A stretch of 59,507 bases of DNA from a virus (taxonomy: Duplodnaviria; Caudoviricetes), in IMG/VR virus record IMGVR_UViG_3300025098_000043, positions 1-59,507 of that record, one strand, 5' to 3'. Shown piece by piece: positions 8,861-31,858 of this stretch (positions are counted from its first letter, which is position 1; every line of letters starts with the position of its first letter). The position numbers and the translations under genes were made by a program. The notes under the pieces were generated by a model. That model was not told where the DNA came from. It saw only the letters and a list, made by a program, of their open reading frames with translations, and ran no database searches.

Positions 8861-8934
8861 AAAAACTTTTCTGTCTTACCCTTAGTTCTATAATATATAT
8901 ATTATAGAACTAACGGTCTAGGAAAAAAGTTTTT
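8861..8934. repeat. 74-bp nested palindrome, copy 1
   Basis: AAAAACTTTT-N11-TTAGTTCTATAATATATATATTATAGAACTAA-N11-AAAAGTTTTT; perfect 32-bp core at 8882-8913. Confidence 0.95.
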
Positions 8935-9190
8935 ATTTTGACTTTCTGCTCCGGCTCTCTGCTCGTTTACGTAATATCCTAGACTTGTTTTTCTTGTAAT
9001 ACTCTCTGTTGTAGTCACTTAACTGCTTTTTGTATGAATAAAACTGACTAGGCTCCAGTTCCTCCATAATCTCAAAAGCCCGCTCTCTCCGACTTTTTGT
9101 CCGCTCATAATAGTCGTTTTGGTATCTTAGACGCTCTTTTCGATGTTTCTGGTAATACTCTTTTTTCTTCTTCGGGTCGTATTCCGGCAT
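8933..9190 (-). CDS. Small basic hypothetical protein
   Basis: 85 aa, K/R/Y-rich (EYYQKH, DYYERT, EYYKKN repeats); preceded by a promoter-like sequence. Confidence 0.65.
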   Translation of the reverse strand: MPEYDPKKKKEYYQKHRKERLRYQNDYYERTKSRRERAFEIMEELEPSQFYSYKKQLSDYNREYYKKNKSRILRKRAESRSRKSK

Positions 9191-9196
9191 GCCTAT

Positions 9197-9224
9197 ATCC
9201 TACTAAACGAAGCACCATCGTCAA
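9197..9224 (-). promoter_or_regulatory. Sigma70-type promoter, leaderless transcript
   Basis: TTGACG-N16-TAGGAT ending 6 nt before ATG 9190. Confidence 0.55.
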
Positions 9225-9506
9225 TTTTTTTCTAAATAGACATATGTACACGGCGCGCCGCGAAAAAAAAAGCCGACCCCACCCGTGGCGTATATCTACT
9301 TCGCGCGCGACTATTAATAATGAACCCCGAATCACGAGCCACGAATCAAGAATAGCGTTACGGGAATCAGGATTCACCCTTCGGATTAAAGGCTTAGGCG
9401 AAGGGGGGCTGTCTGGATCAATAACCCTTGTAGGTATAAGGAAAAAGATCGTTGTCTCCCAGAAAAGGTGAAGGGCAACACTGCCCGAAACAATAAAACC
9501 AATACA

Positions 9507-10052
9507 ATGAAAAAGAATACAACCGCAAATGACCTAATCGCTGCCATCGACCTTATGTTTGATAGCATAGACCAAGCATCCCTTACCCTATTCAATCGAT
9601 GGGAAACCCTCACAGCTGAAGGGGAAGACAATGCTGCTAGTTTGGCAATCTTTGAAGCACTAGTGGCCACTAGTAAGCGAAGCACGAATGCTTGCCCTTA
9701 CTTCACTGAGATTGCAAATATGTGCTATCTCGCTGGATGGGAATGGTCAGACTTCAATGCCGATATGCTAGGAGCATACAAGCTCTACCTTGATTGGAAG
9801 GGTGAGAAGATTTCCGCCAAGAAACTCAACAGCCGTGCTGGTGGATGTTGGGGAAGGTTCAAGAAAGATCCTGAGCTTTGGGGCGAGTATGTCGAACCGA
9901 AAGAAAAGAAGGCTGAAGATGAACTGGCTAACATCCTGAAAACCCTCCGCCGCGTAAAAGCGAAGCTGGAAGAGATGGGGCCGGATGATGAGGCATCTGC
10001 TAAGGTCCAGTCATCATTGAACGACATTCAATCCCTGATCACAATTGGATAA
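9507..10052 (+). CDS. Hypothetical early protein (181 aa)
   Basis: ATG 9507 follows an A/C-rich leader (aaacaataaaaccaataca); first gene of the plus-strand early block. Confidence 0.7.
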   Translation: MKKNTTANDLIAAIDLMFDSIDQASLTLFNRWETLTAEGEDNAASLAIFEALVATSKRSTNACPYFTEIANMCYLAGWEWSDFNADMLGAYKLYLDWKGEKISAKKLNSRAGGCWGRFKKDPELWGEYVEPKEKKAEDELANILKTLRRVKAKLEEMGPDDEASAKVQSSLNDIQSLITIG

Positions 10053-10085
10053 ATACTAGTGACCACTAGTAACCCAACTAAAACC

Positions 10086-10277
10086 ATGATAGCAGATACA
10101 AAAGAGAAGATCGAAATGATGAGACTCCTGACCATTAGATCAGGATTGAAGTTAGAGTTGCTCGGAATGAGGCATTCAAGAAATGCCACATTCAAAGCTG
10201 CGAAGCAAATCACTGGAAAGAAAACGCGTCGGGAAGCTCTCGCAGCGTTGGAAGATATCATAAGATCTAAGCAATGA
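10086..10277 (+). CDS. Small basic hypothetical protein (63 aa)
   Basis: ATG 10086 follows the palindrome and an AC-rich leader. Confidence 0.65.
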   Translation: MIADTKEKIEMMRLLTIRSGLKLELLGMRHSRNATFKAAKQITGKKTRREALAALEDIIRSKQ

Positions 10278-10393
10278 AATGTCAGCCCCCGAAAGGGGGC
10301 GCATTCCCTTCTGCTTACCATACTGGTAGGTAGAATGGAGTGAAGATGCTCCGACTACTAGTGTCCACTAGTAAACCAAAACCAAAACTGAAT

Positions 10394-10666
10394 ATGAATA
10401 ATGTAACATCCGTGGACTTTGAGTCCCTTAGCCGTCGCAATGCAGTGTTAACCTACTGGGGGTTCTCTGAACTCTGCACCATGAAGAAACTATCTCCTGA
10501 TTTTAGTGTCCTAGCTGATGGAGTTAACAGCCGATCTGCCGAAACGCATTGGTATAACTTATCGTCGCTCACTAATGTGAGTGTCCGAGAATTAAAAGAG
10601 ATGGCAGATATTATCGTGCCGAAACAAGAACCTCGTTGGGTTAAAGACTACCTCAGCAAGCACTAG
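10394..10666 (+). CDS. Hypothetical protein (90 aa)
   Basis: ATG 10394 follows the palindrome and leader; its TAG stop lies inside the next palindrome. Confidence 0.65.
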   Translation: MNNVTSVDFESLSRRNAVLTYWGFSELCTMKKLSPDFSVLADGVNSRSAETHWYNLSSLTNVSVRELKEMADIIVPKQEPRWVKDYLSKH

Positions 10667-10691
10667 TGTCCACTAGTAAACCAAATAGACT

Positions 10692-10850
10692 ATGAACGAA
10701 ATAGCAAAAACAATTGGCGAGTCCCTTCAAGGAATGAAGGGGCCGGAAGTAATGCTAGTAATCGCTAGCGTATTATCGATGCCTGTCTTCCTTTACATCC
10801 TTGTGATGGAGGCAGTCAATGAAGTAAAGAAACGTAGAAATAGAAAATAG
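10692..10850 (+). CDS. Small membrane protein (52 aa, not in ORF track)
   Basis: Manual translation MNEIAKTIGESLQGMKGPEVMLVIASVLSMPVFLYILVMEAVNEVKKRRNRK: one hydrophobic stretch and a basic tail; fills the gap exactly. Confidence 0.6.
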   Translation: MNEIAKTIGESLQGMKGPEVMLVIASVLSMPVFLYILVMEAVNEVKKRRNRK

Positions 10851-10851
10851 A

Positions 10852-11106
10852 ATGACTAAAGAAAACCTGACGGAGGTCTTCCCTAAGACCTTCAGAATAA
10901 CTAAATGCGAGAGTGGCAGAGCAGATTGCTACTTTGAATACTCGGATAATAACAAAAAGCATTGGTTTACCATATGTTTGCATGGAGCGATTACGCTGCA
11001 TGGGCATTTCACAGAGTTAGGATATGCAGAGTTAGAGCCAAAAGTTAAATTCCCAAGTTGGCATATCGACAGAAGAGAAAGCTTAAAGAATACTAGTGAC
11101 CACTAG
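10852..11106 (+). CDS. Hypothetical protein (84 aa)
   Basis: Starts 1 nt after the upstream stop; its stop lies inside the palindrome at 11092. Confidence 0.6.
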   Translation: MTKENLTEVFPKTFRITKCESGRADCYFEYSDNNKKHWFTICLHGAITLHGHFTELGYAELEPKVKFPSWHIDRRESLKNTSDH

Positions 11107-11129
11107 TAAAACCAAAACCAAATACAACA

Positions 11130-11819
11130 ATGCAAACAAATAACGACAACACAATACCGCCATTCAGCTTCCTCCGTCCAAACCCCGTCAAGGGGTATGG
11201 AGAATTCAATGGCTACGTGTCCCTACCTATAGGCCATCCGTGGTATGGTAAGACATATCCTAAACTTCAAATGGTTGATATCCATTATGGATTAACCTAC
11301 TCCGAAGAGGAGGATGGTAGGTGGGTCATCGGATTCGATACGTATCATGCTAGTGACGATCAAGACTGGAACAGGGAGAAGGTCCGTAAGGAAGCGAATC
11401 GATTACTGGAACAAGCCGAAGATGAAGAGCGTTGGGAGCGGGAGCAGGAGGAGGAACGCCGTATCGAGCTAGAGTGCCACGAGAAACGGGAGGAAGGTAG
11501 TCATTGGTATCAACCTTACACCGAAGCAGTCCCTCTGGACTTATGGGAACTCTTTCGTGCCATAACGTATGAAATATATGGCAAGATAAATCATGAGCTA
11601 CTCATGAAGACGGTATCCCATCACTCCACAAGGTCCAATAAGCTAGACGCCTATCGTATATACCCTGAGAGAGGTGACGGAGTATTGACTGCGGGAAGTA
11701 GCTTCAAGCTGATCGTAGGTATCCGTTACGGAATGGGTGTTGGTGATTACGACTCACCTTTCGTTACTAATGAAACGGCTGCTTTATTTAACCTAGACCC
11801 CCTCAACCGAGACAACTAG
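11130..11819 (+). CDS. Hypothetical phage protein (229 aa)
   Basis: N-terminal NGYV.LP.GHPWYG...VDIHYGLTYS...W.IGFDT.H pattern resembles a recurrent phage domain of unknown function; bounded by palindromes. Confidence 0.7.
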   Translation: MQTNNDNTIPPFSFLRPNPVKGYGEFNGYVSLPIGHPWYGKTYPKLQMVDIHYGLTYSEEEDGRWVIGFDTYHASDDQDWNREKVRKEANRLLEQAEDEERWEREQEEERRIELECHEKREEGSHWYQPYTEAVPLDLWELFRAITYEIYGKINHELLMKTVSHHSTRSNKLDAYRIYPERGDGVLTAGSSFKLIVGIRYGMGVGDYDSPFVTNETAALFNLDPLNRDN

Positions 11820-11852
11820 TGACCACTAGTAAACCAATAAACAATAAACAAT

Positions 11853-12167
11853 ATGAAAGTAAGCAAAGAAATCCAAGACCACGTAGCCAAGCGAGCGGCT
11901 GGACACGAAGCCAAAAGAGCTAAGAATCCAGACTCCCTCTGGTTTGTTCCTGTGAAGTATACAGATCCAGAGGCTCTCGCTGAATGGTGTGACCACTACG
12001 GTCTTGAGACCGTCGAGCAATATGAGCAAGCGTCAGAATGGGAAGCCTATTATGACATCTACAAAGATGTCAACGGAATCCGCCCACGCTGGACCAAGTG
12101 GACAGACCACTCATCGGATGAGTGGGTCGAGATCAACCAGTCACTACTGGATCAGATATGCGACTAG
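11853..12167 (+). CDS. Hypothetical phage protein (104 aa)
   Basis: Contains YYDIYKDVNGIRPRW; bounded by palindromes. Confidence 0.7.
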   Translation: MKVSKEIQDHVAKRAAGHEAKRAKNPDSLWFVPVKYTDPEALAEWCDHYGLETVEQYEQASEWEAYYDIYKDVNGIRPRWTKWTDHSSDEWVEINQSLLDQICD

Positions 12168-12197
12168 TGGACACTAGTAAACCAATAACACTGAACT

Positions 12198-12359
12198 ATG
12201 AAAATAAGAATAAACAAACAACGCAATGCCGACCTCATGCTGTTGGCGGTGGTCATGATCGCCGATAGCTTGGTAACATTATTAACTCTAGCAATCATTA
12301 ACCCAACGTGGAGGGCAGACCTTATGTTTTCCGACTGGTGGGAAAACCGCAACGACTAA
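12198..12359 (+). CDS. Small hydrophobic protein (53 aa, not in ORF track)
   Basis: Manual translation MKIRINKQRNADLMLLAVVMIADSLVTLLTLAIINPTWRADLMFSDWWENRND; follows the palindrome and leader. Confidence 0.55.
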   Translation: MKIRINKQRNADLMLLAVVMIADSLVTLLTLAIINPTWRADLMFSDWWENRND

Positions 12360-12391
12360 CCAATAACCAATAACCAATAACCAATAACCAA
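12357..12391 (+). repeat. (TAACCAA)5 tandem repeat in a translation leader
   Basis: Five exact 7-mers just upstream of ATG 12400. Confidence 0.9.
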
Positions 12392-12399
12392 TAAGAAAA

Positions 12400-13155
12400 A
12401 TGAAACTACTAAACGCTGGAAACAATAAGACAATCAAGGGAGAAGCAATCGGATACCGCACTTACGGTATTCACCTAGCCCCTAGCAAGATATCAGGATA
12501 CAACACCTGCCCTTATGCATCGAAGGGATGTGCCTTAGCCTGCCTCAATACAGCAGGCCGAGGCATCATGAAGACAGTGCAGCAAGCACGCATCGACAAG
12601 ACCAAGATGTTCTTTGAAGATCGTGAAGCCTTCATGGAACAGCTGATCAAGGAGATCAGGTCCAGTATCAAGTCAGCTAAGAGAGCCGGACTCAAGCCAT
12701 GCTTCCGACTCAACCTGACATCGGACATCTCATGGGAGAAGCTCACTGTGGTAGGTGAGAAGACCAGCCTCTTCGACAAGAGGGACCAGACAATCTTCGA
12801 TCTCTTCCCTGATGTGACCTTCTATGACTACACCAAGTCAATGTCTAGGGCTAAGGCATCCCATCGATTGAAGGGTGGCTGCTGGCCTAGCAACTACCAC
12901 CTCACCTACTCACGGTCTGAAGTTACCAATGACGACTGGATCAAGAAGCTGGCCCACATGGGAGTGAACACGGCAGTCGTGTTCCGTGGTCAGCTACCTG
13001 AGAAATACTTAGGACTTGATGTGGTGAGTGGTGACGAGACAGACCTTAGGTTCCTCGACAAGAAGGGTGTGGTCGTGGGCCTTACTGAGAAGGGGCTGGC
13101 CAAGAAGGATGAGACAGGCTTCGTCGTGGAGCCTGCACTTACTAGTGTCCACTAG
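12400..13155 (+). CDS. Gp88-like protein with a Cys motif (possible Fe-S / radical-SAM-like fold)
   Basis: NTCPYASKGCALACL, RLNLTSDI, FYDYTK, NYHLTYS and GDETDLRFLD motifs characteristic of this phage family. Confidence 0.65.
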   Translation: MKLLNAGNNKTIKGEAIGYRTYGIHLAPSKISGYNTCPYASKGCALACLNTAGRGIMKTVQQARIDKTKMFFEDREAFMEQLIKEIRSSIKSAKRAGLKPCFRLNLTSDISWEKLTVVGEKTSLFDKRDQTIFDLFPDVTFYDYTKSMSRAKASHRLKGGCWPSNYHLTYSRSEVTNDDWIKKLAHMGVNTAVVFRGQLPEKYLGLDVVSGDETDLRFLDKKGVVVGLTEKGLAKKDETGFVVEPALTSVH

Positions 13156-13262
13156 TAGAAACCCATACCCACACAGCATCTATGTCTCGACAGGCATAGA
13201 CGTTGTAGGGTGTGCGTTGTTTCACGTTGAAACTGACGACCCAAACCAAGCAATAAGAAATA

Positions 13263-13643
13263 ATGAAAGCAATAAAGAAGGCAATCGCCAACACGAAGAA
13301 GACAGTAGCAACTAAGATCCGTAACGTAGCGATCTGGTTGTTTAAAGATGAACTCAAGAACATCGTCTTATCAGATGGTGTGCTTGATTACGAAAACCTA
13401 GCCCTGTTCATAGATGAGAAATACATCGCCGAGCATATCAGGGATGCCGATGTGGCGAAGCACGTCGAAGTAGATCCTGATGATGTAGCTTACGCTATGG
13501 ACGTTGATGATGTGGCATCACACATAGACATGGATAGCATAGCCCACGATATGGAATACAACGTCAAGCAGGAGTTGGGTGAGTCTCTTGAAGAGATGCT
13601 GGAAGACAAACTCAAGAATGCCACGTTCAAGATGTCGATATAA
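13263..13643 (+). CDS. Acidic hypothetical protein (126 aa)
   Basis: Imperfect ~9-aa D..D(V/I)A.H(I/V) repeats; its stop overlaps copy 2 of the 74-bp element. Confidence 0.7.
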   Translation: MKAIKKAIANTKKTVATKIRNVAIWLFKDELKNIVLSDGVLDYENLALFIDEKYIAEHIRDADVAKHVEVDPDDVAYAMDVDDVASHIDMDSIAHDMEYNVKQELGESLEEMLEDKLKNATFKMSI

Positions 13644-13715
13644 AAACTTTTTCTCCAGACCGTTAGTTCTATAATATATATATTATAGAACTAAGGGTAA
13701 GAGAGAATAGTTTTT
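13642..13715. repeat. 74-bp nested palindrome, copy 2 (inverted relative to copies 1 and 3)
   Basis: Identical 32-bp core at 13663-13694; spacers TCTCCAGACCG and GGGTAAGAGAG approximate the reverse complements of the copy-1 spacers. Confidence 0.95.
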
Positions 13716-13797: not shown

Positions 13798-13825
13798 TTG
13801 ACACAAGATATCATCAACCTATTAT
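13798..13825 (+). promoter_or_regulatory. Sigma70-type promoter
   Basis: TTGACA-N16-TATTAT with an A-rich UP-like region, upstream of ATG 13897. Confidence 0.65.
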
Positions 13826-13896: not shown

Positions 13897-14949
13897 ATGG
13901 AAACAAATACAACAGTAGAAGCCATCAATGAACTCGACACCGTCCTCGTTCCGCAAGGAAGTGAATACAAAATGTATCACGGACTTGAGGTAGAGTCGGA
14001 GGGTGAGTTCATAACTCCTCGTGATGCCAAGCGTCACGGTGTGTTCCACCCGATAGAGAAGGCCCGTGTCCACGCTACGTTGGACGGTCTGACAATCCCG
14101 TTGCCTAAGCAGCGCGCTCTCATAGCGAGGACGCCGGACGATAGGCGCATCCCGTTGCACATGGCAACGGATAAGTATTCAGTCATCCTCAACGAGGTGA
14201 TTGCTAAGGCAGTCAGCAAAGCGTTGAGGAAGACTGACTGTGACTCCACGTTGTCGTCGATGGGAACCCTCAACAACCTGAAGATGTTCTTCATGAGTTA
14301 CAAGATGGGTGAGTATGATGTGAATGGTGACAAGCATAACACCTACCTGAACGTGACGAGTGGTCACAACGGGGAAGCTCTTCGGGTCTTCCTGTCTGGC
14401 CTCCGTCTTGTGTGTAAGAACTCAATCATGCAGGCTCTCTCCAATGAGAAGGGCTTCATTAATCTGAAGGTCACCCATCGTGGGGACGTGGATGTGAAGT
14501 GTGCTGACCTCTCGAAGAGTATCGCTGGTCTGATTGAAGGACAGCGTAAGCATATCGAAGCGATGGAGATCCTCGCTGCACAGAAGGTGGCCAAGCAGGA
14601 CGTTGTTGCCATCGTGGCAGGTTACTTCTTGAAGGATGCCATGAAGACTGAGAAGTTCTCAGCCCGCACCATGAACACCGTATCCGGTATCACGGATCTC
14701 GCATTCGATGGTAGGGGGAACCGTGGTGAGACATGGTATGATGTCTTGAATGGGGCCACTGAGTATTGGACTAGTGGTGAAGGTGTTGGGGTCCGCACGT
14801 CGAATGCTAGCAAGGCATACTCAAGTGAGTATGGCACTGCTGCCAAGCACAAGACACGGTTCGCTGACTACCTGTTGTCTGCTGATGAGTCCTCTATTGA
14901 GGCTGGCCGTCGTGTCCTTGTTGAATCCCTTAATGCTAAGTTGGTATGA
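13897..14949 (+). CDS. DUF932/DUF945-family phage/plasmid protein
   Basis: Y.V..N, SGHNG, RLVCKNS, THRG and T.YD.LNG.TEY motifs typical of this family. Confidence 0.75.
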   Translation: METNTTVEAINELDTVLVPQGSEYKMYHGLEVESEGEFITPRDAKRHGVFHPIEKARVHATLDGLTIPLPKQRALIARTPDDRRIPLHMATDKYSVILNEVIAKAVSKALRKTDCDSTLSSMGTLNNLKMFFMSYKMGEYDVNGDKHNTYLNVTSGHNGEALRVFLSGLRLVCKNSIMQALSNEKGFINLKVTHRGDVDVKCADLSKSIAGLIEGQRKHIEAMEILAAQKVAKQDVVAIVAGYFLKDAMKTEKFSARTMNTVSGITDLAFDGRGNRGETWYDVLNGATEYWTSGEGVGVRTSNASKAYSSEYGTAAKHKTRFADYLLSADESSIEAGRRVLVESLNAKLV

Positions 14950-15266
14950 TTGTAAACGGTCAAATTAAATGCACCCAGTATCGTGTATCTCAGATCAAGA
15001 AGCTGTCCGAGAAGGACAAGCGTCTTGTGTTGAAGGCATTCAACTCGTTGATCGCCGCGAACAAAGAGCGTGTGTCTTACACTGAGTTCCACCGCAAGCT
15101 CAAGCCTGCTGTGAAGATAGCCTCGACTGTCGTGCAGAGGGGGACACCACAAGCGAACATCTTCTCATGGATTGGTAAGCTTGTAGAGGATGAGCATGAT
15201 GAAGTGAAGGACTGGTTCTTCGTGTGTCATGGACCACCAGAGAACCCGTTCAACCTCAGTCACTAG
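14946..15266 (+). CDS. Hypothetical protein (106 aa)
   Basis: ATGA overlap with the upstream gene. Confidence 0.6.
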   Translation: MIVNGQIKCTQYRVSQIKKLSEKDKRLVLKAFNSLIAANKERVSYTEFHRKLKPAVKIASTVVQRGTPQANIFSWIGKLVEDEHDEVKDWFFVCHGPPENPFNLSH

Positions 15267-15268
15267 CC

Positions 15269-15308
15269 CCGCCATGGGCTATGGTCTTCGGGCCATAGCC
15301 TTAGGCGG
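15269..15308 (+). other. Stable cUUCGg hairpin (terminator or processing/stability element)
   Basis: GGCTATGGTC-TTCG-GGCCATAGCC with outer CCGCC/GGCGG pairing; intergenic; no clear U-tract. Confidence 0.65.
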
Positions 15309-15344
15309 TGTTGGAATGAACTAACACCTAGTAGAAATAAACCA

Positions 15345-15626
15345 ATGAAAGAAACTGATATGACAAATGATAATGCAGGCGTGCCTGTAATCCACATGAA
15401 CGGCTCGTCTAAGAATAGCCTCGTGAAAGAGTGGGTCGCCTTTAACAGTGCGTTAGAGGAAGCCTGTAACAAGTTCCCATTTGAGAGCTTCCACCCTCGT
15501 AACCATTACGTGAAGGAAGGAGACGGTGAGGGAGAAGCAGAGGCATACAAGGCTGAGATGTGTGAGCATCTCCACGCTTTGAAGCGGTGTGTCCAAGAAA
15601 ACGTGGCGGGAATTTGCAAACAATAG
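15345..15626 (+). CDS. Hypothetical protein (93 aa)
   Basis: ATG follows an aaataaacca leader. Confidence 0.65.
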   Translation: MKETDMTNDNAGVPVIHMNGSSKNSLVKEWVAFNSALEEACNKFPFESFHPRNHYVKEGDGEGEAEAYKAEMCEHLHALKRCVQENVAGICKQ

Positions 15627-15630
15627 ACCG

Positions 15631-15933: not shown

Positions 15934-15934
15934 T

Positions 15935-16324: not shown

Positions 16325-16385
16325 ACATTTAACCAAAGAACAAATAAACCAATGACAATCAAACAATACGTAGACTCACAGTAAC

Positions 16386-22900: not shown

Positions 22901-25900
22901 TTAACCACATCATTCTTTAGAAAGTTTTTGACGTTCTGCTCTGGAGCATAGGCGTTGAAGTCTTTAAGACCAAACCCAGCTAACATGTCGGACAGTGCCT
23001 CTATGCGATCTCCTTTTTTAACACTTTCATCGAAGTCCACCCTACTGAGCAGAGCCTTTACCCCACGACTTACTTGGGCGGGAGTTAGATCTTCGATTTT
23101 CTTACCTTTAGATTGTTTATCATTATCGGTTAAAATATCCTGACGTATCTTGAATAAGTTAAGTAGAAGTTCGTATTCGTTTTCAGCCTCATTAACTACT
23201 GACGGGATACTAAAGTTGGTCTCGATATCAAGGCGATCAAAAGAAGATCTCTTAGAAGAGTAAAGTAGTCCTCTAATTGTTTTTACCGCCCTATCCATAG
23301 CTTTGGCATCTTTTGACGGTGGTGTGACTTTTTTAACGAAAGCTGCGACAGGACTTATGGCGTCTGCAAACTTCTGCTGAGTCTTATCAGACGCGGTGAT
23401 TGGTTTCCCTGTTTGTCTGTCGGTTACAGAAACACCTAAAGGTAGGATAAACTTTTCATCCGGTCTGATAAACTTGATTTGAGACAGCCTTCTAGCCCTA
23501 TCAAAGTTGTATGCAAGCTCCGTGTATCGGATCTCTTTTAATAGAGAAACATTTTGAGATGGGTATTTTTTGTGGGGAGCTACAATCGTGTGTAGTTTCC
23601 CTGTCTTTACATCGAATCCATCTCTGAAAGAAGGGTTCAACAATACACTATCTCTATACTCTTTTGGTATAGTGATGGGTATGTTCCTCGACAACATCTC
23701 CAACATAGTAACAGGATCGTTGTTGAAGACCCCAGCTCCGTCTCTAGTTAGTAACCCTTTAACAGCCAATGATGATCTCTTTCCTGTTTTAGGATTATAG
23801 TGCATCACCTTTTTACTCTTAGTAGAGAATGTCTCAAGCGAAGCTTTTGCCTTATCAGTAGGTTCAAGGACGGGGAAGCGGTCGTAGATTTTTCTAGCTA
23901 GAGCCTCGGATACGTCGCGCCTGTTATGGTTTGAAAGGTCAACGCCATACGTAGATTGAGTAGCAAAGGACACTGGAAAACCTCGGACAACGAGATCGAG
24001 AACTTGATCAGCTACTTCCCGTTCATTTGTAGACAGAGTGATCTTACCATCTTCGTCGGTAACATCTTCTGTTTTGATGTTCTTCGACAAGAAAGCTTTC
24101 TCATTGTAGAAGTCTACCGAAGACTTAGATTCGGGAGTGGTGTAGAATGGATCTCTAGCCTTCCGAACCTTCCGGTTCTGTAACTTAATTTTCTTAGCAG
24201 CTTTCTTAGTTGTCTTCTTAGCTGCTTTCTTAGCTGTCGCTGTCTTTATAGCAGCTTTCTTAGCTATCGCTGTCTTTCTAGCAGCTTTCTTAGCAGCTTT
24301 CTTAGCAGCTTTCTTAGCAGCTTTCTTAGCTATCGCTGTATTTCTAGCTGCTTCCTTAGCTTCTTGCTCCTTAGCAGGTTTCTCTTCAGGAGTTGCCTGA
24401 GCCGCTTCGGCTTCAGCTTCGATTTGAGCTGACTCTGCCTTAGCTAAGGCAGCTTCAATTTTTCTAAGTTCCTGAGCCTCTATCTTAGTCAGCTCAGCCT
24501 CTCGCTGTTGTTGACCTTCCTGAACGATTCTTTCTTCTATCGAGGGATAATCAACAACTTCGTCCGCATAAAAATCATCATCAAGTTCTTCTAGAACTAT
24601 TGAGTTTTCTGCAGCTCGCTCGTTGATAACATTGTTGCTCTCTCTCTTTGTTTGATCAGGATCGCTTAGTGTTTCTTCTACAAACTTACTATCACCTTCC
24701 ACTTCAGGTGCAGCTTCTGTAACTTCGGGTGCAGCTTCTGTAACTTCGGGTGCAGCTTCTGTAACTTCGGGTGCAGCTTCTGTAACTTCAGGCGCAGCTT
24801 CTGTAACTTCAGGCGCAGCTTCTGTAACTTCAGGCGCAGCTTCTGTAACTTCAGGCGCAGCTTCTGTAACTTCAGGCGCAGCTTCTGTAACTTCAGGCGC
24901 AGCTACCATCTCACGCATAGGAGTCCTGAAAATCCTTTCAAGTACAGCCGCTGAAACGGGGCTATTATTATCCTTTAGGTTTTTCGACGCACTCTGGGCA
25001 ACGTCAGAAACCATCCTATCAACCTGTGATAAGTTGACTCCTCTCTTCTGACGCAAAGACCTACCAAAACGCTGGACAGCAGGCGCACCTGCTCCCAACG
25101 CTCCACCTAACACAGCTGCGTGGAACGTCTGTCCCAATCTTTCAAACATTGGAGTGTCCTGATCCAATGCGGCATCTTCGACGAACGAGTTTACAAACTC
25201 GTCTAGACCTTCTTCGACAGCTTCGTTACCAGCGTCACGCCCTATTGCTTTAACAACATCTGCCGCTCTGGATATATTTCGTCTAGACCTCTTTGTTATA
25301 GCCGCTGAAGCCATGCCCGCTTTCTTAGCAGACTCTGCGATGCTCTTTTTAAGAGCCGCTTTAACATTTGCATCAAGGTTAGTTTTGTTCGTGACGTTCG
25401 ACATCTTGCCGACCACTGAAGTCATATCGCGGAAAGTCATCCCGCGAAGCAGGGCGTCATCAAGACCGCCCCTGCCGAGTGCTGAGAATCCACCAGTAAT
25501 AATTCCGGTGATGGCTCCACTCATCATGCCTGCTCCTAAAGCTTTGTCGCGAATCTCTTCGTCTGACATATCTGTATCAGACCTAAGAGCATTGGTGATC
25601 GCCCCATAGGTAGCAGCACTTGATCGAGTTGCCGCCGGAATAGCAGCAGCACTTGAAATACCTGCTTTACGGACGATTTCGCTGTTGAATGTTTTCAAGA
25701 CATCCATCGTCAGGTCACCGTGGCCTTCTTTAACTGCGATGTTAATCGCGTCAGAGAGTTTACCTTGATACTTAGCTCCTTTGATTCTGAATACAGACCT
25801 TGGAACACTCTTAACTACGTGGTTGACGTAAGATTTAGTGACTGTCTTAGCCACTGCAACGGAACCAGACTTCGCTGCAACGTAAGCAGCTCCTCCTGTC

Positions 25901-27477
25901 CCGAAAGTTCCGGCTGAAAGGAAGGCAGTAGCCGAGATATCCGTGACCATAGGAGCAAGAGTCTCACCAATCTCGCCAGCATATCCATACTCCTGCCCAA
26001 AGAGACGAGCAATCTGCTGCCTGTCAGAATTCTTCTGAGCAACGTCAGCTAAGTAGTCAGTAGCCATCTTGTTACCTGCTGCTGCTGGAATGGCTGCTGC
26101 CAAAGTCCCGATAGAGTTCACAAGGGACCACGCGATTCCTTTAGATCGTTGGGTAACGAGGCTGTAGTTGTCTTCGTCCTTCAAGAAGTCATTCAAGATC
26201 TCATGATTCTTCTTACCTTGGTTGGCTCCTTCGATTAATGCTTGGCTCCACTGGTCGTCAACAGCACTACGCTTAAACATCTCAGAGTAATCCTCAAAGC
26301 GGTCAGTAAGGACTGACGTGCGGGTCTGCCTAAGAAAATCTTTCTGGTTATCATCAAGAGTAGATCCTTTAACAGTATCGTTGAAGAGATCTTCGTTTGC
26401 GAGAACGTCGCTCGCCATGATTGGCATACCCGTCGAAGAGATGCGGAGGTTACGTCCAGCGTCTTCACCAGTATACTGGTCAAACATGTTTTGTGCTGTC
26501 GCACGTTCGAGGACCGCGTGGTCAAAAGCTGCCCCAATCTCTTGAGCAGTAAACTCTTCACCTTCCGGCAAAGCGTTTGAGCTGTTGACACGGAGCATCA
26601 TGTCTGCGACTGCTTCATCGCGTGTCACATCCTTCGCTCTAAACATCGCAGAGTTCTGCTCCCGTTTCTCAGAAGAGAAGATACCAACAAACGCATCACC
26701 AAACGCATTAACTACATTGGCTGCTTGGTCCATGAAGCCTTCATCCTCTTCGCCAGCACGAAGTTCTGCGTGTGCTTGTAAGAGGGTGTTGGTTTTCTCA
26801 TCACCCCTAATCAACTCAGACATAATAGCTGAAGCTTGATTATAACGAGAAGCCTTGAAGGCGGGAACCTTAGTTCCAAATGCAGGAGTCATCTGCTGTT
26901 GAGCAGCAAGCGCGTCGGATAAAGTGACCTCTCCCATCTTAGAAGCTTTCAAAGCATCACTGAGGTTAGATCCAATAGCCGCGTCGCCCGCTACAATCTC
27001 ACGGCTTCCGTCAAGGTTAGTAAAAGCAGCGAAGGCTAGCTCGCCGTTGCGAACCATCTGCCTCTTCATGGAGTCATACTCCCGATCAGCGATAAACCCT
27101 GCGTTGGTTTTTAACCTTTGGACTTCTTCCGGTGGTAGGCCATCAGCTTCCGCAGTCTTATAAGCAGTGATCGCCTGCCAGCTAGAGCTTTTCGGGTTGA
27201 TGCGAGACTGGATGATATCCATTTTAGCCTCTGAAGATATCGCTTGAGGAGTAGTGAGAGAACTAAACGCATCTATATCACCTTCTTCAATGTCTCCTGA
27301 CGAAACTAAACTACCGTAAAGCTCGTTCTGGATTGAGTTCTCGACCTCTAGAGAATAGTCGTCGGAGTCGAGGTGGGTTTTACGGAGGTAGTTTGAGTAG
27401 TCTACCTTGTTTTGGGTGCTATCTGTAGAGACAGGTCTTTGCTTTACCCAATCTGAGTAATCTTGGAATTCAGTCAT
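16924..27477 (-). CDS. Giant (3517 aa) internal virion / ejection protein, polyvalent-protein-like, with zincin-type motifs
   Basis: Last of three helical ORFs of the podovirus ejectosome type. Hydrophobic Gly/Ala segments in the N-terminal part; LLEEYVHAF and LLHETIHSA motifs; low-complexity repeats. Confidence 0.7.
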   Translation of the reverse strand: MTEFQDYSDWVKQRPVSTDSTQNKVDYSNYLRKTHLDSDDYSLEVENSIQNELYGSLVSSGDIEEGDIDAFSSLTTPQAISSEAKMDIIQSRINPKSSSWQAITAYKTAEADGLPPEEVQRLKTNAGFIADREYDSMKRQMVRNGELAFAAFTNLDGSREIVAGDAAIGSNLSDALKASKMGEVTLSDALAAQQQMTPAFGTKVPAFKASRYNQASAIMSELIRGDEKTNTLLQAHAELRAGEEDEGFMDQAANVVNAFGDAFVGIFSSEKREQNSAMFRAKDVTRDEAVADMMLRVNSSNALPEGEEFTAQEIGAAFDHAVLERATAQNMFDQYTGEDAGRNLRISSTGMPIMASDVLANEDLFNDTVKGSTLDDNQKDFLRQTRTSVLTDRFEDYSEMFKRSAVDDQWSQALIEGANQGKKNHEILNDFLKDEDNYSLVTQRSKGIAWSLVNSIGTLAAAIPAAAGNKMATDYLADVAQKNSDRQQIARLFGQEYGYAGEIGETLAPMVTDISATAFLSAGTFGTGGAAYVAAKSGSVAVAKTVTKSYVNHVVKSVPRSVFRIKGAKYQGKLSDAINIAVKEGHGDLTMDVLKTFNSEIVRKAGISSAAAIPAATRSSAATYGAITNALRSDTDMSDEEIRDKALGAGMMSGAITGIITGGFSALGRGGLDDALLRGMTFRDMTSVVGKMSNVTNKTNLDANVKAALKKSIAESAKKAGMASAAITKRSRRNISRAADVVKAIGRDAGNEAVEEGLDEFVNSFVEDAALDQDTPMFERLGQTFHAAVLGGALGAGAPAVQRFGRSLRQKRGVNLSQVDRMVSDVAQSASKNLKDNNSPVSAAVLERIFRTPMREMVAAPEVTEAAPEVTEAAPEVTEAAPEVTEAAPEVTEAAPEVTEAAPEVTEAAPEVTEAAPEVTEAAPEVEGDSKFVEETLSDPDQTKRESNNVINERAAENSIVLEELDDDFYADEVVDYPSIEERIVQEGQQQREAELTKIEAQELRKIEAALAKAESAQIEAEAEAAQATPEEKPAKEQEAKEAARNTAIAKKAAKKAAKKAAKKAARKTAIAKKAAIKTATAKKAAKKTTKKAAKKIKLQNRKVRKARDPFYTTPESKSSVDFYNEKAFLSKNIKTEDVTDEDGKITLSTNEREVADQVLDLVVRGFPVSFATQSTYGVDLSNHNRRDVSEALARKIYDRFPVLEPTDKAKASLETFSTKSKKVMHYNPKTGKRSSLAVKGLLTRDGAGVFNNDPVTMLEMLSRNIPITIPKEYRDSVLLNPSFRDGFDVKTGKLHTIVAPHKKYPSQNVSLLKEIRYTELAYNFDRARRLSQIKFIRPDEKFILPLGVSVTDRQTGKPITASDKTQQKFADAISPVAAFVKKVTPPSKDAKAMDRAVKTIRGLLYSSKRSSFDRLDIETNFSIPSVVNEAENEYELLLNLFKIRQDILTDNDKQSKGKKIEDLTPAQVSRGVKALLSRVDFDESVKKGDRIEALSDMLAGFGLKDFNAYAPEQNVKNFLKNDVVNNQAFIKTGSMPDFMTLIRQSIDRYIGQSISRDSARVASQAVSLEEITEAGYDPSTGSLDGLDAILGAEEPELLSFDSDAMSEVFKDTVEAAVTEVEVNPEVRQQLEQLYIDIGNNSSQEAIDEVPNLPTEFLIDSIAHKIRQAGYDSPMALDALEFKRQIEQSLLPSAEKLKDLLETVYYPDAKVLNTGKLITKGDVTSNTIAFANFRRREDARISGVPSDVSLFDFVTSREEKQKLTDRGKIIVAKRDIAKEDEFVRLALALPEKAQELLAKSAPAKAVRKAFLEGKTVPVDGLTKEAIDLIKGNKKFYKLSPEDQTVVRNLRSKLIDPDASKAEKKNVSSRIETEVAKGVDEAERKDNERKIYGTTLDKLSPEDRESLIEIVEDLESTTDPLERAELSDEAMMIVGRANNHASQNSASQAATPMERQLMRADNLAEIERLGLEHNSPETVIAALKTISAESDNPSHKLVADLLLEDESFISTVDFYIVDSPEDYAGQYAYRNDGTHRVAINIDTGNKLGLENVLLEEYVHAFLSDVTKSNTDQRSDQQNAAVERLNRIYKLAEKQYRASGIKDPMLEDAFVDFDEFLAKFLLSPKLQASIKLLEAPADQRGFFKRIIDSILSMFRKRKVSKTEAVEYGKALQDVIDLTKSSTLAQRPPLTQEAARVAEDTGRVITKVQEKIIEQQEQRESRMTSEEAVDDTVEDTASDEPVTFESENRRKIEEVEAHLRSRTPRGLSLQESSLMDEGGIARLNQGNFNSDGIQIVEFDFEAFEVATRGMDMIGAKVYAEKLLLHETIHSASYNALTVEEITKLEESISDSDYASIAETYFRTDEAIAEAKAKLESDNVEEVALIKRQLAEEYLRMNSERVLSGTTTEEDAEFWSSDPSLLRIIARYFRSMFARLANRRRAEKGSGVLDEMLIRIHDEVILIQNGYVHYDPSTEFNTDDPEESLNKFNEILKRDIGSGQPEGVALQAKVGASSASDVDFSNIPKLLELSMVEFKTYKSPKTWFARNFKGDVDLPIRRIMEQRAEFERASTRVLKTFHTEFNKIIERDFGEMTQELSDKINLAQGYSPVSLVKEKSYREIEEEHRLTVRQLKNDDSLTDAQKEEQKQESRDRRDRLQVKAETKAIAEHQQAVDKALDDIRKISPDLAAKITLMREELIRPIQKIMTEDGSGLSKELRARIDRTGGIYLTRQYKIFNDPTYAQKVLEDPDFQTAREFAIEYFTNQMGLSKDEATEAMRVFVQQYDTGLQGSGTPLTKSYKKIMKNLSRRKDLPIALRNLMGEYGLEESTKGEPATNLLLRTFATVSTLAAQQKFRSNIVKWGDESNSIVSKEKRDADPAKFGDYVLLLDPKTAVKGDPLAGMYAAADTVKDLRDMLTPSPIGIDSSSAGKTVEGMAKVMQNLTGKSMLFKTLGSVGFYVRNILGNVLFFGPAQGVSLSTMGRTAADSWKSIIGVMNPDQIDAELTEMTALGVFGDELRAGMIKELLDGKNETFLDKLNNILDKVPDDKASGAKGAIAKTGKGFKSLEEALMRLSSNVDGVYKIQYYKHELGVLMEAREKYPDTRIFGKGSKKFKDATDEQLKRMAADKVKRTAQSLSQAPPIISKLSKSSYGMLFAPFIRFKTEIPRIVFNTYELAKEEMASDNPLIKARGKRRRIAMTSMVGGLSLGVPSALALLVLGIGNDEDEALRKSMPSYLRGHSFFFFRWFGELKSIDLTYVNPFSIMADPVARGVQELTRGNIDGAVGAFLKGAFFDQYLDEQILAGAVQDAMDNRDAKTDRPISIDKVDGFSVAFAKRLGYVVDTAYNPRLISDAWDAYKAMGTDWDKVSDSPVGEFFDGTLPFRIHDVDEEAQFRRFIRDHKDRVNEVKSKKYRMYSDQPISEDDIRDIYNDEADDLITLNKEMYTVMQGFKGLGIEDREQFNVMKGAGIGKDKARLLRVGISDRLTPNVGFLEGLQQRGLADRISPMLEEKNKRARYHRLDD
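24701..24904 (-). repeat. 21-bp tandem repeat, about 9.7 copies, encoding (APEVTEA)n
   Basis: ACTTC(A/G)GG(C/T)GCAGCTTCTGTA units read directly from the sequence. Confidence 0.95.
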
Positions 27478-27511
27478 AGCTGAGTTATTTTAGGGTGATG
27501 TAGTGTTGTGT

Positions 27512-28465: not shown

Positions 28466-28482
28466 TGTCTAAAGTATTTAGG

Positions 28483-29628
28483 TTAAACGTTCCCGTATTG
28501 TTTCACTTGCTCATAAGGTTTAGGAGACTTTTTGTATGACCGTAGGATGTCGTCCAAGAGAGACCGAGTCTTTTCAGCACGTTCGGCTGAAGCCATAGAC
28601 TGTAGAACGTCTCGTTGTCTGTCGGATTGAGAAGTAATTGAAGGTCGATTCTTACCCATCTGGCCTGCTTGTGCTAGTAATGGATTTACAAGAGCATCAA
28701 CTTTAAGCCCCTTACGTTTAGCTAGCCGAGCCATTCGGGCAGCTTTATTAATCATAAGAGTTTCAGGGCTAGTGATTGATCGGCTTTCACCTGCTGCTCC
28801 AGTCAAAGAATTACGTGCTACGAAAGGTTTCCCAGCTGCTCTATCTTGCTGGGCGAGTCTAACTTTCTGATCATAAGCACCTAACCCACCACCTAGTTTC
28901 CCTTCAAACCTCTGAAGGTAACCTAGTTCTTTCTCAGTTGCTCTATCTTTAATCAAATCTTCTCTTGAGAAAGCTTTCTTCATCTCATCTTTAGTGAGGT
29001 TAGCTTTGCCTGACTCACCTTTTTCAAAGAGTTTTTCTTGTGCGGCTTCATCTAGCATACCACCTTTAGATAGCTTTTTGGCTTCTTCCATCAAACCTAC
29101 CCTTGCCTGCTTCTTCTGCATTGCGGGTTGTTGTGCAATGTCACCGAGAAGTTTACTCTTTTCTTCTTGCGGCATTGAGGTATCAGCTATCGTTTGCTTA
29201 CGTAGCTGCCCTAGTTCCAAAAGATCTCTTTCGTAGTCTCCCTTTTTTTCTACGCCTGCTTGATCTAAAGCTTGGAAGCCTTTGTCGTAAGCGTCCATAA
29301 CAGGTTCTTCTGCGGGTGCGCCTACAGCACCAGTAGCTCCAATCGGGCCTACTTCACCTAAGCCACCAGAATCACCTAATCCTCCGGTTTCACCAAAGTT
29401 TTCGCTGCGCTTCTTCTCTTCCTCCGAATTTTGTAATCCTCCGGTTTTACCAAAGTTTTCTCTGCGATTCTTCTCTGCCTCCGAATTTTGTAATCCTCCG
29501 GTTTTACCAAAGTTTTCTCTGCGATTCTTCTCTTCCTCCGAATTTTGTAATCCTCCGGTCTGCCCTAATCCTTGAGGCTTTCCTTGAGCAAGGCGTTTAG
29601 CAGCCTCTTTTTTTTGTCTCTCAGTCAT
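28483..29628 (-). CDS. Putative internal virion protein (likely start ATG 29628)
   Basis: Gly/Lys/Glu-rich, with three 57-bp repeats (29377-29559) encoding TGGLQNSE.EK.R.ENFG. Confidence 0.55.
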   Translation of the reverse strand: MTERQKKEAAKRLAQGKPQGLGQTGGLQNSEEEKNRRENFGKTGGLQNSEAEKNRRENFGKTGGLQNSEEEKKRSENFGETGGLGDSGGLGEVGPIGATGAVGAPAEEPVMDAYDKGFQALDQAGVEKKGDYERDLLELGQLRKQTIADTSMPQEEKSKLLGDIAQQPAMQKKQARVGLMEEAKKLSKGGMLDEAAQEKLFEKGESGKANLTKDEMKKAFSREDLIKDRATEKELGYLQRFEGKLGGGLGAYDQKVRLAQQDRAAGKPFVARNSLTGAAGESRSITSPETLMINKAARMARLAKRKGLKVDALVNPLLAQAGQMGKNRPSITSQSDRQRDVLQSMASAERAEKTRSLLDDILRSYKKSPKPYEQVKQYGNV

Positions 29629-29630
29629 GG

Positions 29631-29924
29631 TTACCAAAGTTTCTTACAGGCCCAGTATCTAGCCGTTGTTTTGTCTTTTGCAGTTTTGCAGTTGTGCCTA
29701 GCGCGGAAATTAGCTCTACGCTTAGGGTTCTTATGTTTCGTGAAATCACTGTAGTCGCGGTGGCCGAAGCCAACTTTCTTTATTTTCTCGCCCTCTTTAC
29801 CTAAAACGACAAATTTTTTCTTCGATCCTTTAGGCGCGCGCTTAGGTTTATTAAAACCAGCATAAGTCTCGCCATGATACTGGATTCGCCCAGACGGCAA
29901 GCGTTTGAATCGTTTAGTCGCCAC
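29631..29924 (-). CDS. Small basic viral protein (DUF5754/DUF6321-like); likely GTG start at 29924
   Basis: KKVGFGHRDYSDFTKH...RRANFRARHNC...DKTTARYWACKKLW. Confidence 0.65.
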   Translation of the reverse strand: MATKRFKRLPSGRIQYHGETYAGFNKPKRAPKGSKKKFVVLGKEGEKIKKVGFGHRDYSDFTKHKNPKRRANFRARHNCKTAKDKTTARYWACKKLW

Positions 29925-29931
29925 GCGACAT

Positions 29932-29960
29932 AAACTACCAGAATTCAACGAAACTGTCAA
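29932..29960 (-). promoter_or_regulatory. Sigma70-type promoter, leaderless transcript
   Basis: TTGACA-N17-TAGTTT ending 7 nt before GTG 29924. Confidence 0.55.
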
Positions 29961-29987
29961 CGGAGGGTCTGCTGCGGCACCCGCCTA

Positions 29988-30061
29988 AAAAACTTTTCTG
30001 TCTTACCCTTAGTTCTATAATATATATATTATAGAACTAACGGTCTAAGGAAAAAGTTTTT
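29988..30061. repeat. 74-bp nested palindrome, copy 3
   Basis: Identical 32-bp core at 30009-30040; outer arms extend to CGCCTAAAAAACTTTT / AAAAGTTTTTTAGGCG; overlaps the TerL stop. Confidence 0.95.
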
Positions 30062-31848: not shown

Positions 31849-31858
31849 AATTAAATCG

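Follow-up and report, generated by a model that had tools for sequence, protein, structure and literature searches.

A conserved family of stop-codon hairpins in a marine uncultured phage lineage: candidate leaky terminators between head-to-tail transcription units

Introduction

L5-type mycobacteriophages have dozens of stoperators, asymmetric repressor sites of 13 bp, and in phage T7 the promoters precede the RNase III sites and do not come after them. In the PeSL cassettes of T4-type phages, a strong sigma-70-like promoter is paired with a stem-loop that lowered lacZ expression to a similar extent as rrnB T1 (PMC2839356). For phage LUZ7, terminators are reported that can be weak and can shift in strength during infection (PMC9163698).

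We analysed a complete 59.5-kb virus record of a marine, uncultured lineage (hereafter the window, the whole stretch of 59,507 nucleotides), in which an initial annotation had pointed to three copies of a nested palindrome. Here we document the structure, covariation, positions, downstream promoter, copy number and within-genome homogenisation of this hairpin element. On balance, and with a confidence only a little above even, we take the conserved hairpin family to be leaky intrinsic terminators or attenuators that insulate head-to-tail transcription units; termination, leakiness and the homogenising mechanism are what we infer.

As PeSL are portrayed in the published descriptions (PMC2839356, PMC4122927), the element resembles them in being a repeated intergenic motif that starts at an upstream stop codon, in joining a stem-loop, here a putative terminator or attenuator, to a sigma-70-like promoter that serves the following gene, in its within-genome similarity and in a possible tie to variable gene blocks and recombination. 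It differs in that PeSL number about 50 per genome, clustered in hyperplastic regions, and have a short stem-loop, often of polyG/polyC, interleaved with the promoter, whereas the element occurs in 2-3 copies per genome in 14 records, forms a 72-nt, AT-rich, two-tier hairpin with symmetric A/T runs, has its promoter separate and downstream, and belongs to an unrelated, uncultured phage lineage. With the bidirectional terminators described for LUZ7 it shares an A-run on one side of the hairpin and a U-run on the other, which yields a hairpin plus U-tract from either strand; three of the four bidirectional regions reported there lie at convergent gene pairs, whereas the copies here stand between co-directional genes and have an AT-rich stem of about 34 bp (PMC9163698). 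The element is absent from the window's convergent junctions (16.9 kb and 41.5 kb). Like L5-type stoperators, the elements are repeated sites overlapping stop codons, with one orientation in the window; unlike them, they are few, form hairpins and do not conserve their orientation in relatives.

Results

Three copies of a two-tier hairpin

A search for the 32-nt core (TTAGTTCTATAATATATATATTATAGAACTAA) with up to three mismatches permitted found exactly three sites in the window and none in 100 dinucleotide shuffles (0 expected). The core is a perfect palindrome, because both strands match at identical coordinates. The palindrome trio of the initial annotation is therefore real, and the copies are placed as follows:

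8861..8934, minus strand: copy 1, 3' of the stop codon of an 85-aa ORF and 35 nt ahead of the start of an HNH-like gene
13642..13715, plus strand: copy 2, inverted relative to copies 1 and 3, ending a small-gene block
29988..30061, minus strand: copy 3, directly 3' of the stop codon of the terminase large subunit (TerL) gene

A repeat search of the window grouped the three as a single 75-nt repeat family. Copies 1 and 3 share 97% identity; copy 2 is inverted, its arms being complementary to those of the other two at 92-93%. The element is a hairpin of about 72 nt in two tiers, running from an A-run through a lower stem, an internal loop and a 14-bp upper stem to a T-run, with a near-constant length of 69-74 nt. 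When the window was scanned with filters off by a covariance model from the relatives, three sites only were recovered (80.5, 78 and 80.5 bits for copies 1, 2 and 3), the next match having an E value of 2.2. The predicted folding energies of the sense RNA were -29.9 kcal/mol for copy 1 (z -7.7), -33.4 kcal/mol for copy 2 (z -7.4) and -51.4 kcal/mol for copy 3 (z -11.7), the palindrome of the last reaching further, over 29979-30070. Rfam gave no match to the window at gathering score; sub-threshold matches were to long-hairpin (miRNA precursor) families only, at 23-28 bits against gathering scores of 56-120.

Flanking genes and promoter-like sites

Each copy had been said to overlap the TAA of an upstream gene. 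This holds, as the ORFs 8933-9190(-), 13263-13643(+) and 30061-31911(-) each touch one copy, and all three copies lie just 3' of a stop codon between co-directional genes. The features around them are:

8370..8397, minus strand: promoter-like TTGACA-16-TATACT (11/12 matches), overlapping the HNH stop codon
8394..8825, minus strand: HNH-endonuclease-like gene (phrog_6086, phrog_959), between copy 1 and the next promoter
8933..9190, minus strand: very basic 85-aa ORF whose TAA opens copy 1
9197-9224, minus strand: promoter-like site of the 85-aa ORF, which appears to be a single-gene unit
13263..13643, plus strand: last ORF of the small-gene block 9468-13643, whose TAA opens copy 2
13798..13825, plus strand: promoter-like TTGACA-16-TATTAT (11/12 matches), about 80 nt past copy 2
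29932..29960, minus strand: promoter-like TTGACA-N17-TAGTTT with TGG before, 28 nt past copy 3
30061..31911, minus strand: TerL gene (phrog_2, E 6e-14), whose TAA opens copy 3

Judging from the TerL proteins of relatives, which are about 595 aa long, translation probably begins about 20 codons inside the ORF. Downstream of the TerL copy, at a distance of 18-77 nt, the pattern TTGACA-N17-TAnnTT was present in 54 of 56 unique loci, compared with 3% of background windows. The promoter-like site past copy 2 precedes the gene at 13897-14949. A PeSL-like coupling to a promoter is thus present with copy 2 and at the TerL site. Copy 1 lacks it: the next feature there is the HNH gene, and only then comes the site at 8370-8397. 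Eight nucleotides downstream of that site is the ATG (8361-8359) of a 752-aa, portal-sized gene, and the site is kept in relatives L171, L172, L174, L177, L179 and L182, as judged by direct reading of the region upstream of the portal gene, where a stricter pattern matched 13 of 46.

Homologues of the 85-aa ORF occupy the equivalent place in relatives G001-G004; the protein itself gave no lead in Pfam, PHROG or Atlas. HNH homologues come after the element or elements in G001-G004 and L138, and in every genome examined the HNH gene stands beside the element. It starts 15-35 nt past the element(s), a distance too short for a promoter of its own, and is conserved at 60-90% amino acid identity. 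The giant 3517-aa protein encoded in the window, queried as a possible virion RNA polymerase, had no Pfam, PHROG or PDB sequence match.

Conservation and covariation among relatives

A search for cultured relatives, with DNA and TerL protein queries against 50,697 phage records, gave no match, and none of the 120 TerL homologues listed bears an informative name. The sequencing runs listed as holding the sequence (20 across 15 studies) were DNA throughout, with none recorded as RNA. The covariance model gave exactly one match just 3' of the TerL stop in 71 of 80 TerL loci, and six of the nine without a match were truncated; the element was accordingly present in 71 of the 74 informative loci, the remaining three carrying a similar hairpin. 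At portal-gene loci, one or two matches lay upstream of the HNH gene in 30 of 50 cases. Three copies were found in five of the six near-complete relatives, and 13 other virus records had 2-3 copies each (14 records with the window), which, these being independent assemblies, rules out an assembly artefact. Relatives with TerL identity as low as 81% and portal identity of about 68% still carry the element at these positions. Conservation of the family across relatives supports the earlier suggestion of a dedicated cis-element.

On 43 sequences, the two-helix structure left 86.2% of cells paired, against 49-57% when the pairing was slid. Cells with double changes numbered 166 against 51-86 for slid pairings, a count matched by none of 500 shuffles, and both stems covary. 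Template switching can reportedly generate such covariation in the absence of selection (PMC8794818, PMC8604942), which counts against the terminator reading proposed below.

Local tandem duplications of the element have a period of 115-119 nt, two tandem copies are found at the copy-1 site in G002-G004, and decayed half-copies adjoin the TerL stop in some relatives. Matches to the outer-arm pattern in an unrelated 36-kb phage group belong to a different repeat array and were rejected as members.

Homogenisation and orientation

Identity of the core was 0.96 within a genome and 0.68 between genomes. The copies had also been described as oriented with transcription. Relative to the upstream gene, all three window copies do have the same orientation, a 1-in-4 chance event, but orientation varies in relatives: G002, G004 and G006 carry the TerL copy the other way round, and the TerL sites of 40 relatives comprised 4 forward, 9 reverse and 27 unmarked cases.

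Three proteins were considered as co-varying partners of the core and rejected. Changes in the apex sequence are not followed by the 85-aa or the HNH protein; for the 85-aa protein, G002 is 99% identical to G003 and 93% to G004 although their apices differ. The HTH protein at 31802-32473 is 86-88% identical to its counterparts in all four relatives whatever their core. The within-genome likeness may be kept by exchange between copies together with hairpin-templated mutation and would then not be owed to a specific factor reading the apex.

Discussion

Proposed termination and its putative leakiness

Among the functions that the initial annotation offered for the element, "transcript end or processing site" fits best, given the co-directional 3' ends and the downstream promoter in 54 of 56 loci. 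Under termination, the upper 14-bp RNA stem would fold first, and the lower stem (C-UUUUC.../...GAAAAG) would then close directly against 5-8 U; this is how a factor-independent terminator is built. With the matching A-run the signal becomes symmetric, and it could therefore act in either direction. Three junctions would be insulated in this way: between the TerL gene and the virion-gene block, which has a promoter of its own; between the small-gene block and the block after it; and between the 85-aa and HNH genes. Once retained, the 3' hairpin would also shield the upstream mRNA. The reading is favoured by the position of all copies behind stop codons, by the predicted RNA folds (-30 to -51 kcal/mol, z -6 to -12) and by the closing C-G pair that is followed at once by T5-T8 in the window and most relatives. 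Leakiness is suggested by the HNH gene, which has no room for a promoter after the element and is nevertheless conserved. Stem covariation, the occupied TerL and portal-gene loci and the precedent of the PeSL cassettes also speak for this reading.

Several observations count against termination. The element has a GC content of 0.25 and a stem base of CUUUUC/GAAAAG, unlike the G+C-rich stem of a typical terminator; a canonical GC-rich terminator is found elsewhere in the genome (3046-3084(-), after a capsid-sized gene). In relatives L047-L056 the lower arms are non-complementary, with about 12 nt separating the T-run from the paired stem. Tests for a strand signature of the sense RNA are neutral or weak: G-U cells number 66 and A-C cells 59, the A-run and T-run are symmetric (with mean lengths of 6.0 and 6.1, and the same length in 25 of 47), and the sense fold is lower than the antisense in only 32 of 47 sequences that are not independent. 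The constant length and within-genome identity exceed the needs of a plain terminator. A terminating ribosome may, moreover, hinder a hairpin that abuts the stop codon; the terminator tR2 is reported to be repressed when placed a few bp after a gene (PMC4824070).

Possible processing of a read-through transcript

A credible though unlikely alternative is an RNA processing or stabilising hairpin of the T7 RNase III-site type, in which transcripts would read through, be cut by a double-strand-specific RNase in or near the internal loop and have their upstream mRNA protected, termination being minor. The element has the two-stem arrangement of such sites, with an internal loop between stems of about 12 and 14 bp and a duplex of 30-36 bp; pairing is nearly complete in the hairpins of some relatives (-38 to -45 kcal/mol), and the length is constant at 69-74 nt. 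Placement between co-transcribed genes, with an HNH gene lacking its own promoter, also agrees with processing, and T7 likewise has its sites, several similar copies per genome, at co-directional gene junctions. T7 sites, however, lack flanking A/U runs, and here the A-run and T-run are the most invariant alignment columns, although a processing site needs neither. The order of promoter and hairpin is opposite to that at T7 RNase III sites. Because a promoter directly follows the TerL copy, the downstream genes on that side are independent of read-through, which is not needed there. Processing and termination can coexist in one hairpin.

Possible regulated switch points

Rather improbable, to our judgement, is that the copies are regulated switch points, all opened at once by a phage factor or by the state of upstream translation, or, in a variant acting on DNA, exchange points that flip or swap gene blocks. 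If so, read-through from the TerL, 85-aa and small genes into the virion, HNH and next-block genes would be timed together, and the copies would have to stay alike since one partner would be reading them.

Possible sites acting in the DNA

More doubtful still is a cruciform or hairpin site in the DNA that would be bound or cut by a phage protein, for instance the adjacent HNH nuclease, serve as a point of module exchange or inversion, or start replication. The core is perfectly palindromic with an AT-rich centre, wobble pairs are without strand bias, A and T runs are symmetric, the interior of the element flips orientation, and copies are homogenised within genomes; the HNH gene adjoins the element in all genomes examined. 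Many relatives, though, have asymmetric loops and GC-rich apices, which disfavour cruciform extrusion, and adjacent proteins do not follow the apex, the 85-aa one being 93-99% identical between relatives whose apices differ. Copies 1 and 2 form inverted repeats bracketing a 4.7-kb block, and tblastn matched none of the ORFs from 9386 to 13643 in G002-G004. The block past copy 2 also differs between the window and these relatives, which leaves the breakpoints without a fixed link to the elements. The sites are invariably intergenic, at unit ends and near promoters, and a Pfam scan of 47 ORFs found no recombinase, resolvase or protelomerase. An origin or packaging signal gained no support, though it is conceivable.

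A protelomerase target, also proposed at the outset, is not supported. The element shares a long palindrome with an alternating AT centre with N15-type telRL, but there the site is single, here there are three per genome, and the stem varies freely among close relatives. Searches for a protelomerase or tyrosine recombinase found none in the 47 ORFs scanned with Pfam nor in 16 compared with PHROGs; as many proteins match no family, a very divergent one may be encoded. A bidirectional TATAAT promoter is not supported either: TATAAT is present in only 15 of 47 unique elements.

Very improbable is a miniature mobile element, akin to MITE, REP or Correia elements, that spread to three sites: terminal inverted arms, near-identical copies within a genome, tandem duplications (115-119 nt period) and half-copies decaying by the TerL stop would suit one, but the sites are positionally conserved, with the TerL site occupied in 71 of 74 informative loci, copies number just 2-3 per genome, the flanks examined show no target-site duplication, no transposase was found, and flank duplication in the tandem pairs resembles ordinary tandem duplication.

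Implications

Should termination be confirmed, the element would represent a compact, symmetric, AT-rich terminator design. Here a structured non-coding element undergoes concerted evolution within genomes, inverts and duplicates in tandem, all the while keeping its length and pairing. As a clean natural example, it bears on how much of stem covariation stems from selection and how much from hairpin-templated mutation. In a lineage that is abundant in the sea and whose proteins are mostly unannotatable, the hairpin is a first regulatory landmark, and with their promoters the three hairpins would parse the genome into transcription units.

Three hairpin copies at co-directional gene junctions

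The initial annotation had described a nested palindrome occurring three times and fused to TAA stops, and all three copies were confirmed, at 8861–8934(−), 13642–13715(+), and 29988–30061(−) (copies 1, 2, and 3). The 32-nt core is indeed a perfect palindrome, both strands matching at identical coordinates, and it had exactly three matches in the window with up to three mismatches permitted and none in 100 shuffles. Each copy starts within the TAA of its upstream ORF (8933–9190(−), 13263–13643(+), and 30061–31911(−), respectively) and consists of an A-run, CTTTT(T)C.., a poorly paired spacer of ~10 nt, the 32-nt palindrome, a second spacer of ~10 nt, ..GAAAAG, and a T-run. The copies group into a single repeat family, in which copy 3 is 97% identical to copy 1 and copy 2 is an inverted version with arms 92–93% complementary. 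The GC content of the element is 0.25, its stems are AT-rich, and Rfam gave no match to it. A search of the window with R1, our covariance model of the element, returned the three copies only.

Gene blocks were drawn from the ORF map and protein family scans.

Gene blocks and promoter-like sites in the window
8825 to 2, then 59505 to 41597, minus strand: long virion and lysis block (ORF map and family scans)
9190–8933, minus strand: single 85-aa gene, with a promoter-like site at 9197–9224
9468–13643, plus strand: small-gene block (ORF map)
13897–16942, plus strand: next block (ORF map)
29960–16924, minus strand: block ending in a 3517-aa ORF (ORF map)
31911–30061, minus strand: terminase large subunit gene, TerL (ORF map and family scans)
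31802–41436, plus strand: replication block with helicase, DUF2800 nuclease, DNA polymerase A, and DUF5906 protein (family scans)
29932–29960, minus strand: promoter-like site TTGACA-N17-TAnnTT downstream of copy 3 (motif shared with relatives)
13798–13825, plus strand: promoter-like site TTGACA-16-TATTAT after copy 2 (sequence motif)
8359–8397, minus strand: promoter-like site TTGACA-16-TATACT, the next after copy 1, overlapping the stop of the HNH-endonuclease-like gene (HNH); the interval includes the ATG of the portal-sized 752-aa gene

Copy 1 lies between the 85-aa gene and the virion block, copy 2 between the two plus-strand blocks, and copy 3 between TerL and the block ending in the giant ORF, so that all three junctions join co-directional units. 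The element is absent from both convergent junctions of the window, at 16.9 and 41.5 kb.

The early blocks encode a small protein carrying the C-terminal helix-turn-helix domain of DnaA (16526–16942(+)), a GP88-family protein (12400–13155(+)), and a DUF932 protein (13897–14949(+)). The 3517-aa ORF (16924–27477(−)), with tandem repeats of 21 nt and 12 nt around 24190–24946, had no Pfam, PHROG, or PDB sequence match; among the compared virus records, its identity is 72% over 2221 aa in G001 and just 37% over ~1020 aa in G002–G004. The 85-aa gene is divergent from the small-gene block and is kept beside the element in relatives; its product, P0121, is very basic, has an internal repeat (KEYYQKHRKERLRYQNDYY / DYNREYYKKNKSRILRKR), and matched no family. 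Within 9659–13156, ACTAGTGNNCACTAGT occurs eight times exactly (0.02 expected), always on the plus strand and in the block that copies 1 and 2 enclose. Most of these motifs overlap a small-gene stop, ~25–38 nt ahead of the next ATG, and are followed by AAACCAA(A)ACCAAA; seven are found in the homologous block of G001 and none was reported in the early region of G004. The motif could be a gene-by-gene promoter or processing hairpin, and hairpin early promoters are mentioned for N4-type phages in the LUZ7 paper (PMC9163698). The window is the entire virus record (59,507 bases, completeness rating 100%). Bases 1–108 are identical to 59265–59372, and the window end (59112–59507) carries 237-nt repeats, 93% identical, within a tail-fibre-like gene; as the record ends within this repeated gene, genome closure there is uncertain.

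Conservation and covariation among relatives

The phage collection gave no match to the window by DNA or TerL protein; IMG/VR contained many relatives. In a set of 80 TerL loci (81–96% amino acid identity), the sequence after the TerL stop showed the same architecture nearly everywhere, with quite different upper-stem sequences and a length of 69–74 nt, mostly 72 (trimmed to four A and four T). We aligned 43 sequences, comprising 40 relatives from the 53 unique TerL-site elements and the three window copies, and specified a two-helix structure for the covariation test. Under this structure, 86.2% of the cells were paired, compared with 49–57% with the partner slid, and 166 cells showed double changes, compared with 51–86 slid; the observed values were reached in 0 of 500 shuffles. 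The lower stem also covaries (ACTTTTC/GAAAAGT, ACTATTC/GAATAGT, AGTCTTC/GAAGACT).

Of the 80 TerL loci, 71 gave a single R1 site, in every case directly past the TerL stop; matches in 40 of the loci are by construction, as R1 was built from those 40. Among the misses, six loci have at most 12 nt beyond the stop and three (L062, L064, L065) carry a similar hairpin below threshold. R1 also matched sites that had no part in its construction. In whole records (all at least 92% complete), three sites were counted in each of G001, G002, G003, G004, and G006 and two in G005; partial records have one to three. Among 50 loci fetched by the 752-aa protein, 30 showed one or two R1 matches 450–650 nt upstream of its gene; in the 20 without an R1 match, a simple hairpin scan found 71-nt AAAAGTCT.../...AGACTTTT elements in 4 and a doubtful element in 1, leaving 15 with none. 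We conclude that the element is a real, conserved, structured cis-element.

Four element sites were also found across four contigs, L138, L157, and L162 among them, of a MAG titled uncultured Opitutae bacterium, one site being followed by an HNH homologue (49% identity). These contigs are likely pieces of a related phage that were binned into the MAG, so the title gives no more than a weak hint of the host. The 36.8-kb IMG/VR record G015 (locus L159) comes from an unrelated phage group, with only DNA polymerase in common (26% identity). At 1500–1760 of L159 lies a 72-nt hairpin that has the outer arms of the element; beyond it, several AAAAGTTTTTTGAGAGAAA and TTACTAACGTTTTGAC repeats follow in a non-coding stretch of ~300 nt.

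Copy arrangement, homogenization, and inversion

G001 has the layout of the window, with copies at the 85-aa|HNH junction, the small-gene block end, and the TerL end. G002, G003, G004, G006, and G008 have the TerL copy and, at the 85-aa|HNH junction, two tandem direct copies with a spacing of 115–119 nt. The tandem pair is present in 7 of the 50 portal loci. Its 47-nt spacer resembles a duplicated 3' end of the 85-aa gene. In G002–G004, tblastn gave no match to the ORFs lying between 9386 and 13643. In L047, L029, L007, and similar loci, the element lies 40–55 nt past the TerL stop and the gap holds an extra partial stem-arm copy, which resembles what is left of a decayed tandem copy; in L047, for example, the 18-nt CTTTGGTGCTGTAATTAG occurs twice.

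The mean identity of the central 34 nt was 0.96 within genomes (27 pairs, 13 genomes) and 0.68 between them (78 genome pairs). In G004, the TerL copy and the tandem copies are reverse complements that share the same two non-palindromic positions, which shows transfer between copies and not convergence. We judged orientation relative to transcription by the asymmetric spacers. The proposal that the copies are oriented with transcription holds for the window, and orientation is likewise uniform in G001 and G003, but it fails as a family property: G002, G004, and G006 have a flipped TerL copy, and at the TerL site of 40 relatives, 4 are oriented as in the window, 9 are opposite, and 27 have no marker. 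Reported effects of template switching between inverted arms are homogenization of the arms, inversion of the spacer, and the creation and maintenance of hairpins (PMC8604942, PMC8794818). Together with exchange between copies, it would account for the flipped copies, perfect palindromes, and rapid paired changes. With such a mechanism, covariation alone is no proof of selection on RNA.

Evidence for and against termination

We lean, by a modest degree, toward the element being a leaky terminator or insulator that is homogenized within genomes. In the hairpin, the C next to the A-run is paired with the G bordering the T-run, placing a T5–T8 tract directly after the stem. A conserved promoter-like motif, TTGACA-N17-TAnnTT, often with TG ahead of the second hexamer, follows the TerL element: TTGACA lies 18–77 nt downstream in 54 of the 56 unique TerL loci with enough sequence, against a background of only 3% of 110-nt windows. 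A conserved GTGGCGA(A/C)T is found ~12–15 nt past the second hexamer, in the leader of the gene after the TerL element (29900–29930(−) and relatives).

The HNH gene starts 35 nt downstream of copy 1, and 15–20 nt in G002 and G004, leaving no space for a promoter between the element and HNH. The second hexamer of TTGACA-16-TATACT, a site kept in six close relatives, is 8 nt ahead of the ATG of the 752-aa gene, a spacing that suggests a leaderless or nearly leaderless mRNA. As the HNH protein is conserved (60–90% amino acid identity among relatives), it is presumably expressed through read-through, and the hairpins would thus be leaky or regulated, not absolute stops. Work on LUZ7 shows that terminators of phages may be weak or bidirectional and may vary in strength during infection (PMC9163698). 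The sole clear textbook terminator of the genome is a GC-rich canonical one at 3046–3084(−), with 16 pairs, 9 of them G–C, and T6, after a 451-aa capsid-sized gene.

Tests for a sense-RNA signal were neutral or weak: G–U was seen in 66 cells and A–C in 59; mean run length was 6.0 for A and 6.1 for T, with equal lengths in 25 of 47 elements; and the sense strand had the lower folding energy in 32 of 47 (P = 0.018, for nonindependent sequences). The fold comparison used 47 of the 53 unique elements, six being left out as mis-delimited. Such symmetry would suit a bidirectional signal or a DNA-level element, or could reflect a bias erased by flipping. In L047–L056, ACTTTT is repeated directly, not inverted, in the lower arms, and the T-run lies far from the stem.

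All observations are compatible with RNase III-type processing of the transcript, which may operate alongside termination. As for the TATAAT promoter suggested in the initial annotation, TATAAT is present in only 15 of 47 unique elements, which makes a built-in promoter unlikely. No recombinase, protelomerase, or transposase family was found in the 47 ORFs scanned, many proteins having no family at all. A protein reading the apex is not supported: apices differ between G002 and G003 and between G002 and G004, but the identity of the neighboring 85-aa protein is 99% for the first pair and 93% for the second.

Relation to known systems

A limited, word-based literature search found no account of the element or the lineage. 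By analogy, the closest described system is the PeSL cassettes of T4-type phages, repeated intergenic units beginning at the upstream stop codon, in which a stem-loop is coupled to a strong sigma-70-like promoter (PMC2839356, PMC4122927). The PeSL stem-loop is reported to cut lacZ expression about equally to rrnB T1 (PMC2839356), and the cassettes are described as recombination points (PMC2839356, PMC4122927). PeSL cassettes number ~50 copies and the elements 2–3; in the latter, the promoter is a separate unit downstream, the hairpin has a fixed length, and the phage lineage is uncultured and unrelated. The element family thus shares the logic of PeSL cassettes but differs from them in its long, symmetric, AT-rich two-tier form.
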